From a virus (lineage: Duplodnaviria; Heunggongvirae; Uroviricota; Caudoviricetes): a stretch of DNA of 33,208 nucleotides. Below, in pieces: positions 7,804 to 9,968 of the stretch. The notes beneath the pieces were generated by a model. That model was given only the letters and a program-made list of their open reading frames with translations, did not search any database and was not told the DNA's origin. Position 1 is the first letter of the stretch; every line of letters starts with the position of its first letter. The stretch lies in the IMG/VR virus record IMGVR_UViG_2579778919_000008. One strand, 5' to 3'. A program made the translations under genes and the position numbers.

Positions 7804-9968
7804 TGCGGGCCTCCTGTTGAGCCGCGAACGGATTGTTCGCCGTTGTATTCATTAACAGCTGATGCAATTTCACGTCCGTCTAATACCAGCTTTGTGGTGA
7901 GGTTAATTGGTTGTGATTTTTGTTGCTGCTGGGGCAGCAGATAAGACGGTACGCCTGTGGTTGCTGGTGTGTTTTGACCCATAGTGGCCGGTGAACTCCA
8001 CCATGATTTGATCTCATCCACGGCATCCAGCAATCCGGGGCGGGCTTTTACTGCATCCAGCATGCGTGCTGACTCACTGGAATAGTTGTCGACCTTGAGT
8101 CTCGCACGCGCATCAGCATCGCCTCGCTCAACATGAACGAGCGGCGCATCCTGCATGCCCTGGTAGAGTGCCAGCGGAGCAGCAACGCGCCCCAGAACTT
8201 TACCTGCACCACCCCGGATAGCGGACCAGGTGCGCCCCAGAGCAGTACTGCCAGCAGACGGAACTCCCCCTGCAGGAGAACCAGGCATTTTTATTCCGCC
8301 CCCCGTCAGGAAATTGAGCCCGGCAAAAGCTACAGCCGCCGCTGTCATGGCTTTAATGCCAGTGGTGGCACCTGCAATCGCAGTGGTTAGCCCCGGATAC
8401 TCACCAGCATATTTGGTTAATTTTTCTGAAATGTCACCCAGTGCATCAGATAAAGGGGCAATGGAATCCATTGCAGCAAAGTCCTGTTCGTTTTTTAACT
8501 GCCCAGTTTTATATCCCGGCTGTTCTGACATTAAAGCAAAGTTGATGTTACCGGCAGTATTACCAACTGGTAAATTACGTTGTGAATTCGCCCCTGAAAT
8601 TACGTCTTGGGTGTATTTTTTATTCCCTCTATACCCTAATAGAGCTAATAGCGCCTGCTGGTCAGCAATAATTTTACCTATACCAGAACCTTCAAGAATC
8701 CTTGCTTGCGAACTAATTATATTTTTACGTTCACTTTCCGGTGCTGTTTTGAGTTTATCTTCAAGTTTTTTATATGCTGGATTTGAAGCCACAATTTTAT
8801 CAACAATTGTGTTAAAAGCTTCTAGAGGATTTATACCGTTACCAACAGCTTTTGCAAGACTTCCAGAGAGGTCAATTCCTTTACCGCTGGGTAGTTTAAT
8901 CCGTGCTGCAGCGTTAGCAGCATCCTGACTATTCAGCTTTAGCAATAAATTATTAAGGTTATTACCGGCCTCGTCCGGTGAACCTGATGTAATAGCTGAC
9001 GCCTGGTTCCAGCCAAGCAAGACGGCAAAATCATCAAGACCTTTCATACCGACATTGCCAGCACTGGCAAGCTGCTTAGGAAGCCACTTAGCCATATCTT
9101 TCAATTCAAAAGAGCCACTTTGCCCAGCGCTAATTGCCATATTAAGTGCAGACTCAAGCTCACCGTCTTTTATGCCAAACGATTGTTTTAATTTTATGGC
9201 AATATTTGCCAAATCTTCTGGAGCTGCGCCAGTGGCTGTGGAATATTTTTGAATTAAAGGTAGCATCACCTTTGCTGACGGCATATCAACAGCCCCTGAA
9301 GCCAGCATTGTATCAAGGGTATCAGCTGCTGATTCTTTTGTTCCGCCGCCAGCACGAACAGCCTGGCGAACCATCGAATCCATCTCCACCATTCCTTTTC
9401 TGCGACCTTGCAGCCCTTCATCGGCATAAGCAGTATTGGCCATCATTGCAAGTCGCTGGCGATAGTCCATCTGTTTAGATACTGGTGTTGATAATACGGC
9501 CCCTGCAGCAGCAATCCCGCCAGCAACTGCAGCAACGCTGGAACCAGCAGCACGAAAGCGCTGCATGCGCGTCATTGAGTCATTCACGCCACCAAGTTCA
9601 GTCCGCAGCGTTTTGACCCTGTCAGTCATGGCCCTGAAAGCCCGATTCTGCTCATTCGCGGACAGCATGCCTGTGCGGGTAAGGCGGTTGTAGGCCGCCA
9701 TGGTCTGCTGTATTTCACGCTGAATATCGCGCTCAGAACGAATACCAAGGGTAGATCGCGCCGAGCTGGCGCGACGGTATTCCTCAATCAGAGAACGGGA
9801 GGCACGAATCGCTGTGGTTGAGTTCTGCTGGCGGGATTTCGCCAGCTCGTCATCGGTCTTTTGCGCCGCTTTGGTATCACGGCTGATGCCCTGCAGTGCC
9901 TGCTTAAGCACTTTAGAGCCGGTATCACGGGCAAGCAGCTGCAGCGCCAGTTGTAAGTTACGCGCCAT
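7800..9968 (-). CDS. Tail tape measure protein
   Basis: 722 aa, largely helical and Ala/Gly-rich, directly downstream of the chaperone gene; start codon sits 3 nt after the stop of the predicted frameshift product. Confidence 0.85.
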   Translation of the reverse strand: MARNLQLALQLLARDTGSKVLKQALQGISRDTKAAQKTDDELAKSRQQNSTTAIRASRSLIEEYRRASSARSTLGIRSERDIQREIQQTMAAYNRLTRTGMLSANEQNRAFRAMTDRVKTLRTELGGVNDSMTRMQRFRAAGSSVAAVAGGIAAAGAVLSTPVSKQMDYRQRLAMMANTAYADEGLQGRRKGMVEMDSMVRQAVRAGGGTKESAADTLDTMLASGAVDMPSAKVMLPLIQKYSTATGAAPEDLANIAIKLKQSFGIKDGELESALNMAISAGQSGSFELKDMAKWLPKQLASAGNVGMKGLDDFAVLLGWNQASAITSGSPDEAGNNLNNLLLKLNSQDAANAAARIKLPSGKGIDLSGSLAKAVGNGINPLEAFNTIVDKIVASNPAYKKLEDKLKTAPESERKNIISSQARILEGSGIGKIIADQQALLALLGYRGNKKYTQDVISGANSQRNLPVGNTAGNINFALMSEQPGYKTGQLKNEQDFAAMDSIAPLSDALGDISEKLTKYAGEYPGLTTAIAGATTGIKAMTAAAVAFAGLNFLTGGGIKMPGSPAGGVPSAGSTALGRTWSAIRGGAGKVLGRVAAPLALYQGMQDAPLVHVERGDADARARLKVDNYSSESARMLDAVKARPGLLDAVDEIKSWWSSPATMGQNTPATTGVPSYLLPQQQQKSQPINLTTKLVLDGREIASAVNEYNGEQSVRGSTGGPQ

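Follow-up and report, generated by a model that had tools for sequence, protein, structure and literature searches.

We studied the gene for the tail tape measure protein in a stretch of 33,208 nucleotides from a tailed virus (Caudoviricetes; IMG/VR record IMGVR_UViG_2579778919_000008), and we refer to this whole stretch as the window. The middle of this gene is AT rich, and we argue that the AT-rich stretch is the helical core of the protein, which related prophages appear to exchange in frame. The core has two deeply divergent types, which we call X (the version in the window) and Y (the alternative in L039 and L040, two assemblies from Escherichia coli). X seems to be the version that is typical of the family, and the low GC content would be a standing property of this slot in the gene rather than the trace of a recent import. 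We would give this reading a probability of about 0.7.

The middle of the tape measure gene is AT rich

The gene is on the minus strand at 7800-9968, as an open reading frame of 2,169 nucleotides that encodes 722 amino acids. The protein matches PHROG 794 (“tail length tape measure protein”) with an E value of 3.5e-207 over amino acids 1-720. Amino acids 202-398 (8775-9365, minus strand) match PF10145 (PhageMin_Tail) at 78.8 bits, as compared to a cut-off of 33.2. Also, the syntenic gene in a prophage of E. coli FDAARGOS_1303 is annotated as a tape measure protein. The length of the protein is conserved: most relatives have 713-724 amino acids.

The original prediction was that the central part of the gene (8480-9300) is AT rich while both ends of the gene and the surrounding genes are GC richer, and that the frame stays open throughout. 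All of this holds up. The frame runs without interruption for 722 codons. In intervals of 200 nucleotides, the GC content is 0.355-0.42 across 8400-8999 and is at most 0.48 up to about 9300, versus 0.55-0.63 in the flanks of the tract and 0.531 in the whole window. The interval 8480-9300 has a GC content of 0.413, as compared to a mean of 0.534 (standard deviation 0.036) for intervals of the same size (z = -3.4). Just 0.85% of such intervals are as low, and all of these are around 24200-25300. The minimum within the gene is at 8600-8899 (minus strand), where GC is 0.355-0.36.

The deviation is also seen when codon positions are considered separately. GC at the first, second, and third positions of codons (GC1, GC2, and GC3) is 0.61, 0.50, and 0.61 for codons 1-142; 0.56, 0.44, and 0.32 for codons 144-532; and 0.66, 0.55, and 0.49 for codons 533-722. 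The drop is mainly at synonymous sites, and amino acid composition alone is not sufficient to account for it. If we slide windows of 389 codons across 24 other genes, then GC3 is 0.578 ± 0.059 and never falls below 0.406, which places the central tract (codons 144-532) 4.4 standard deviations below the other genes. GC3 is lowest at codons 361-440 (0.12-0.20). Judged by GC3, the tract is wider than 8480-9300: it spans codons 125-525 or so (roughly 8390-9600). The usage of basic amino acids shifts as well, from 14.8% Arg and 4.2% Lys in the N-terminal part to 3.1% Arg and 7.5% Lys in the center, which argues that the AT pressure is old.

Could the dip be an effect of amino acid composition, or chance, or an artefact of assembly? 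The center does have slightly reduced GC1 and GC2, and most of the distant homologues have a small dip in total GC without a dip in GC3, as if composition made some contribution. But GC3 carries most of the drop (from 0.61 to 0.32), and the z value speaks against chance. Furthermore, exactly the same protein has been recorded on 63 independent contigs from several sources, so the AT-rich tract is not an assembly artefact. Given the contigs and GC3, we consider this explanation to be refuted, with hardly any room left for it.

Two candidates of another kind were also rejected. First, we do not think that a DNA or RNA element is embedded in the tract: it has no promoter-like sites (2.3 would be expected), there is no match to an Rfam family anywhere in the window, and the scan for tandem repeats found one negligible repeat. 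Second, an antisense open reading frame of 232 amino acids runs through the AT-rich tract on the plus strand (8230-8928), but it has no match in Pfam and is most likely a spurious shadow of the coding frame.

The core is a cassette on interchangeable backbones

Over 10.5 kb upstream of the core (9502-19969), the prophages in L039 and L040 match the window at 98.9-99.3% identity, and over 6.1 kb downstream (2308-8424) they match it at 99.2-99.5%, while blastn finds no nucleotide alignment across 8425-9501. The first and last nucleotide differences from L039 are at 9540 and 8375 of the window. They bound a cassette of 389 codons (codons 144-532; 8375-9540, minus strand) with a total GC content of 0.44. 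The N-terminal arm that precedes it (codons 1-143; 9541-9968, minus strand) is conserved, has the composition of the backbone, and is predicted to form long Arg-rich helices. Amino acids 1-143 are identical between the window and the Y carriers L039 and L040, and this arm is 100% identical to L039 and L040 in nucleotides too. The C-terminal arm (codons 533-722; 7800-8374, minus strand) is conserved as well: except for S574G, amino acids 533-722 are identical to those of P0024, the protein of a Y carrier.

Within the cassette, X and Y are collinear. In a single full-length BLASTP alignment, amino acids 144-532 of X are about 35% identical to Y (34-36% in the core), and the gaps total 9 columns. 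The proteins differ in length by 5 amino acids (722 for X and 717 for Y). The Y and Kosakonia alleles match PF10145 as X does, so X and Y are homologous. When the three segments of the protein are compared separately, they give discordant signals rather than a uniform one. The near-identical flanks, the collinear but divergent center, and the intact frame bear out the part of the original prediction that proposed an in-frame replacement of the central domain.

Both junctions are inside hydrophobic segments that are rich in Gly and Ala and that are kept in X and Y. The 5' junction is in amino acids 140-164 (9477-9551, minus strand), where the Kyte-Doolittle score in 19-residue windows reaches 1.76, and the 3' junction is in amino acids 530-561 (8286-8381, minus strand), where it reaches 1.38. 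The cassette also corresponds to a predicted structural unit. An AlphaFold2 model, built with 44 homologues, has an all-helical domain at residues 160-520 or so, with a predicted local distance difference test (pLDDT) of 76-92, and the arms are modeled as helices of low confidence or as coil (mean pLDDT of 62.9 for the monomer). We found no relative of the cassette in PDB, either by sequence or by fold (the best Foldseek E value was 0.07).

The neighboring structural genes do not follow the swap. Between the window and the Y carriers, 99-100% identity is kept in the genes for the sheath, tube, chaperone, DNA circularization, and baseplate, and the chaperone gene is 100% identical in nucleotides to the Y carriers L039 and L040, with no covariation with the type of center. 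Within about 10 kb on each side of the cassette in the Y carriers, only the tail-fibre end covaries with the type of center.

Among 123 full-length homologues of the tape measure protein, the centers form two deep types. The 84 proteins of type X are 59-100% identical to the center from the window, and the identity of the center tracks the identity of both ends, down to about 60%. The 38 proteins of type Y, one of which is from Kosakonia, are 34-37% identical to the center from the window. Y is confined to backbones that have 85-100% identity to the window at the N-terminus. When 120 homologues are compared by segment, 36 proteins of type Y are 85-100% identical to the window at the N-terminus and 88-99% identical at the C-terminus, but 34-36% identical in the center. 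X and Y are both found in E. coli, Citrobacter, and Enterobacter, while Salmonella has X only.

The same flanking haplotypes occur with either center. At the N-terminus, the haplotypes I61Q+E62D and S72A+D81E, as well as the haplotype with none of these changes, are each found with both X and Y. At the C-terminus, this is true of S685P..E711D, G664S+V695I+A704V, and I653V+M663V, which is a four-gamete pattern. This implies repeated reassortment of the cassette. From these comparisons of sequences, the cassette appears to be a discrete unit of recombination, with crossovers at the two conserved hydrophobic segments and with at least two deeply divergent versions on interchangeable backbones.

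In kind, this is ordinary mosaicism of phage tail genes, although it is unusually cleanly resolved. Recombination within tail genes at conserved flanks belongs to the general model of mosaic phage genomes. What we see shares with it the abrupt change from about 100% identity to no alignment, the preservation of the frame, and the coincidence of the module's boundary with the domain's boundary. What differs is that there are two alleles of matched length, that the junctions are in two hydrophobic segments, and that the same flanking haplotypes are found on both alleles. The prophages with X and Y are a natural near-isogenic pair that differs, within about 17 kb, essentially only in the core of the tape measure protein, and they give precise boundaries for a domain-level swap in such a protein: two hydrophobic segments around a helical core. 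The pair is suitable material for testing the role of the central domain in the entry of DNA or in recognition by defenses that are directed at tape measure proteins.

Other parts of the gene and its surroundings vary as well. The backbones of L042 and L043 are 93-97% identical to the window, yet the chaperone is 81-84% identical, the N-terminus of the tape measure protein (compared to 9549-9968 of the window) is 87-90% identical, and the center is 71-77% identical. In L043, from Enterobacter asburiae (6001-8241), the C-terminal part of the tape measure gene has been replaced by another AT-rich version (GC3 of 0.28-0.38), giving a protein of 746 amino acids. In these relatives, the recombination hot spot reaches past the central cassette. 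Near the 3' end of the gene, at amino acids 685-711 (7833-7913 of the window), there is a set of 10-11 linked substitutions (S685P...E711D) that segregates independently of the type of center. This block accounts for the 84-85% identity of codons 621-722 to L001 and L041 (both X carriers), and it was probably recombined separately, as a small unit beside the DNA-circularization gene. Finally, in L046 (506-2662), a metagenome scaffold with the same backbone, the tape measure gene is of type Y and is called as two pieces of 62 and 629 amino acids; either this copy has been inactivated or the sequence contains an error.

X has apparently diverged along with the backbone

Over 17-22 kb, two other carriers of X share about 94% identity with the window: L001 (E. 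coli FDAARGOS_1303) and L041. Their cassettes are 95.3% and 94.4% identical to that of the window, as compared to genome-wide means of 94.3% and 94.0%. The rate of synonymous divergence (dS) in the cassette is 0.21-0.24, versus 0.16-0.30 for neighboring genes, and the ratio of nonsynonymous to synonymous divergence (dN/dS) within X is 0.03. Because the cassette has diverged to about the same level as the backbone, we conclude that X has diverged together with the backbone, and the low dN/dS indicates strong purifying selection. Across the prophage, divergence is not generally tied to low GC (Spearman rho of -0.11 and -0.08).

The relationships of X and Y to more distant proteins point in the same direction. 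X is 43-50% identical to homologues from beta-proteobacteria, which is closer than X is to Y. The nearest relatives of Y outside of its own type are 30-36% identical, and all are from Enterobacterales. Since X has diverged along with the backbone and is closer to the beta-proteobacterial proteins than to Y, we regard X as typical of the family and Y as the intruder. We also considered hyperdivergence in place, in which X would have turned into Y, and rejected it, as X is nearer to the beta-proteobacterial homologues than to Y and as dN/dS within X is so low.

Low GC content is probably a property of the slot

The original prediction explained the AT-rich center as an import from a phage with lower GC, and it is this part that does not hold up well. 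If it were correct, then the gene would be a recent chimera whose AT-richness is the unameliorated signature of the donor. In its favor, the composition changes sharply where the near-identical prophages lose their similarity; Lys is used over Arg, as expected after long evolution under AT pressure; and the GC3 of the cassette (about 0.32) resembles that of the tape measure gene of Haemophilus phage SuMu, which is uniformly low in GC (GC3 of 0.30-0.35) and has no dip. However, the allele that would have been replaced is equally AT rich: Y has a GC content of 0.40 and a GC3 of 0.31, versus 0.44 and 0.32 for X. Also, L001 and L041 are as diverged from the window in the center as they are in the backbone, and across the family the identity of X tracks the identity of the ends, down to the most distant X proteins.

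Nor did we find a low-GC donor. Low-GC hosts (Proteus, Morganella, Providencia, Pasteurella, and Glaesserella) have homologues that are 41-46% identical to the X center and that are no closer to it than the homologues from high-GC beta-proteobacteria. The best match to the X center outside of this backbone is from Yersinia and is 63% identical. There is no signal of amelioration either, as there is no excess of AT>GC changes: by majority rule among three X sequences, which is a small sample of 60 informative sites, we count 27 AT>GC changes and 33 GC>AT changes in the cassette, as compared to 35 and 65 in the arms. We consider a recent import of this kind to be improbable.

Instead, the dip is widespread among relatives. 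Every relative that we sampled from E. coli, Citrobacter, Enterobacter, Klebsiella (at about 60% protein identity), or Kosakonia has a central dip, whichever type of center it carries. Relatives from Pectobacterium and Rahnella have a weaker dip that is shifted toward the C-terminus, and the dip is nearly absent from a metagenome-assembled genome of Buttiauxella and from most of the beta-proteobacterial homologues. As all versions of the cassette are AT rich, composition is not a marker of recent import here. More generally, a trough in GC content within a gene should not be read as a recent import unless relatives are compared. Here, the trough lines up exactly with a genuine recombination cassette, but it is older than the swap, and all of the alleles have it.

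It may help to compare the cassette to the low-GC islands and morons that enterobacterial genomes have acquired horizontally. The similarities are that GC and GC3 are well below those of the surroundings and that Lys is used over Arg. But rather than being inserted, the cassette forms an essential portion of a structural gene, in frame with the rest; it is present in all of the relatives, no donor was found, and there is no signal of amelioration. Most likely, the AT-richness would reflect long residence in a pool of AT-biased alleles that circulate horizontally and have not been raised to the GC content of the backbone.

Alternatively, selection on the nucleic acid itself might keep the GC content low, whether through silencing by H-NS in the lysogen, through weak structure in the mRNA, or through slow translation that helps the chaperone to capture an aggregation-prone protein. 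X, Y, and diverged enterobacterial lineages do maintain a GC3 of 0.3-0.45 in the same slot on differing backbones, the substitutions are compositionally balanced, and the beta-proteobacterial homologues mostly lack the dip in GC3, all of which such selection could explain. On the other hand, no discrete element is visible in the tract, whether promoter-like site, Rfam match, or repeat, and the Buttiauxella homologue is almost without a dip. We think that this idea is rather unlikely to be right.

We still favor the view that the AT-rich stretch is an exchanged helical core with a family-typical X and a standing low GC content, but several points weigh against it. The small number of polarised changes is one. 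Another is that the AT-richness of two such different alleles at one place in the gene would fit local selection on DNA or RNA just as well. Our census of alleles is incomplete: the searches with the X and Y centers as protein queries returned mostly partial or shorter proteins, apparently without long ones or ones that were already listed. As to history, the lineage of the window may have either kept X or regained it, and the last swap may have been in this lineage or in that of L039 and L040. The structural model is of a monomer, and the state in the virion may differ, as tape measure proteins are extended inside the tube. Finally, the selective explanation that we discuss below is drawn from siphoviruses, while this phage has a contractile tail.

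Why might two versions persist?

The conserved segments on either side of the core supply the homology for crossovers, and the unit of exchange is a structural domain. The exchange keeps the frame, the collinearity, and the length of the protein, and the neighboring structural genes do not need to change. The length of the tail and the contacts during its assembly would presumably be retained, because the arms and the chaperone and baseplate genes are identical across the swap and the length is conserved, while the central domain would gain an entirely different surface. Frequency-dependent selection would be the most likely reason that two such different versions persist; it could come from factors of the host or of prophages that recognize the tape measure protein during the injection of DNA or during the assembly of the tail. 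Evasion of defenses that are directed at the tape measure protein is a plausible reason for having two versions.

There are precedents for such recognition. In the Mu-like Pseudomonas phages JBD26, DMS3, and JBD16C, replacing the tape measure gene changes the sensitivity to the Tab prophage defense, and point mutants could not be isolated (PMC10884400). For SNIPE, a nuclease that acts at the injection stage, susceptibility correlates with clades of the tape measure protein and with one of its internal regions, which is divergent; mutations that permit escape are in the tape measure protein too (PMC13190303). In lambda-like phages, the inner-membrane route of entry, with its dependence on factors such as ManYZ, and the susceptibility to defense are set by an internal region of the tape measure protein (amino acids 300-400 for the phiR68.2 phage; A304V for lambda) (PMC13190303). 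A similar case is HK97 gp15 and dependence on PtsG (Cumby et al. 2012, 2015, as cited in PMC13190303).

None of these systems is a perfect match to ours. The phages that Tab acts on are, like the one in the window, Mu-like and temperate, and close relatives among them differ mainly in their tape measure, chaperone, and tube genes (PMC10884400). But they are siphoviruses, and the determinant is at the C-terminus of the tape measure protein, whereas the phage in the window has a contractile tail and exchanges a central domain. The SNIPE and HK97 cases involve point mutations or a divergent region of 100 amino acids, and the siphovirus proteins in question have no sequence homology to the one that we studied; here, a homologous domain of 389 codons is replaced as a whole.

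Another possibility is that having X and Y confers no advantage. A foreign center would have entered once, by recombination at the conserved flanks, and would then have been shuffled by homologous recombination, as neutral mosaicism. Phage genomes are pervasively mosaic, and neighboring blocks have been shuffled too (the chaperone and N-terminus in L042 and L043, the C-terminus in L043, and the block at amino acids 685-711). That X and Y are both widespread in several genera, that each is under strong purifying selection, and that the length is conserved to within 5 amino acids would seem to argue for something more, although these observations are still compatible with neutrality. This explanation deserves to be taken seriously, even if we lean against it.

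A stronger version of the selective explanation is that the center is a balanced polymorphism of at least two ancient, length-matched versions under selection from defense or exclusion systems, with the AT-richness itself being maintained, for example by H-NS silencing or by the pacing of translation. We consider this version unlikely.

The prophage and its other variable regions

The window is a Mu-like transposable prophage, as it contains genes for the Mu-type transposases A (30922-32979) and B (29983-30876), a late activator, an endolysin, and a tail module. It resembles SuMu and Klebsiella phage ST405-OXA48phi1.1. According to PHROG assignments, the genes upstream of the tape measure gene are for the sheath (10884-12302), the tube (10496-10870), and the tail assembly chaperone (10103-10495, minus strand; PHROG 508), and the genes downstream are for DNA circularization (6472-7803) and the baseplate (5271-6488). 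The order of these genes (sheath, tube, chaperone, tape measure, DNA circularization, baseplate) is the same in the annotated relatives.

By tblastn, the nearest deposited phages are ST405-OXA48phi1.1 (MK388859), whose tape measure protein is 54% identical over 98% of the query, and SuMu (JF832915), which is 40% identical over amino acids 1-527. Phage Mu itself is not among the tblastn matches in the organism summary. Both of the nearest phages share the order of the tail module and have a homologous tape measure protein, and the Klebsiella type of prophage has the same central dip in GC3. On the other hand, megablast of the tape measure gene against deposited phages gives no match to either of them or to any other phage, and SuMu is uniformly low in GC, without a dip. 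More sensitive blastn searches with this gene find only a Klebsiella phage, at 65% identity, and short matches in Ralstonia. The prophage itself is present in just 1 of 5,426 complete genomes of E. coli.

A gene of 44 amino acids is called at 9863-9997 in both L039 and L041 (corresponding to about 9972-10106 of the window). It overlaps the end of the chaperone gene and stops just before the start of the tape measure gene, which is where a frameshift-extended chaperone, similar to G/GT of lambda, would be expected.

Near the middle of the prophage is a gap of 368 nucleotides (16437-16804) between a protease gene (15321-16436) and a virion-morphogenesis gene (16805-17347). A small gene on the reverse strand is called in this gap in L001 and L041. 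In Mu, the strong gyrase site is between the genes that correspond to this pair. We also considered the AT-rich cassette as a central strong gyrase site of the Mu type and rejected this because of its position: the cassette is off center, at roughly one quarter of the length of the prophage from the tail-fibre end.

The only other spot in the window that is strongly AT rich is at 24649-25155 (minus strand), with a GC content of 0.367 and a GC3 of 0.27. It has an open reading frame of 168 amino acids that matches PHROG 29261, which is of unknown function, and that sits between the endolysin (23926-24570) and a gene resembling a late activator (25155-25625). The prophage of E. coli FDAARGOS_1303 aligns with the window only as far as 24669, so this region is variable, and the open reading frame is possibly a moron.

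Finally, tail-fibre and fibre-assembly genes are on both strands at 1-2606. The tail fibre (1458-2606) and an open reading frame that resembles a fibre assembly protein (1060-1692) are on the minus strand, and further open reading frames of these types are on the plus strand (1-645 and 639-1088). Similarity to L039 and L040 breaks down below 2308. This arrangement resembles the invertible G segment of Mu, and relatives have a gene for a resolvase or invertase just beyond it.

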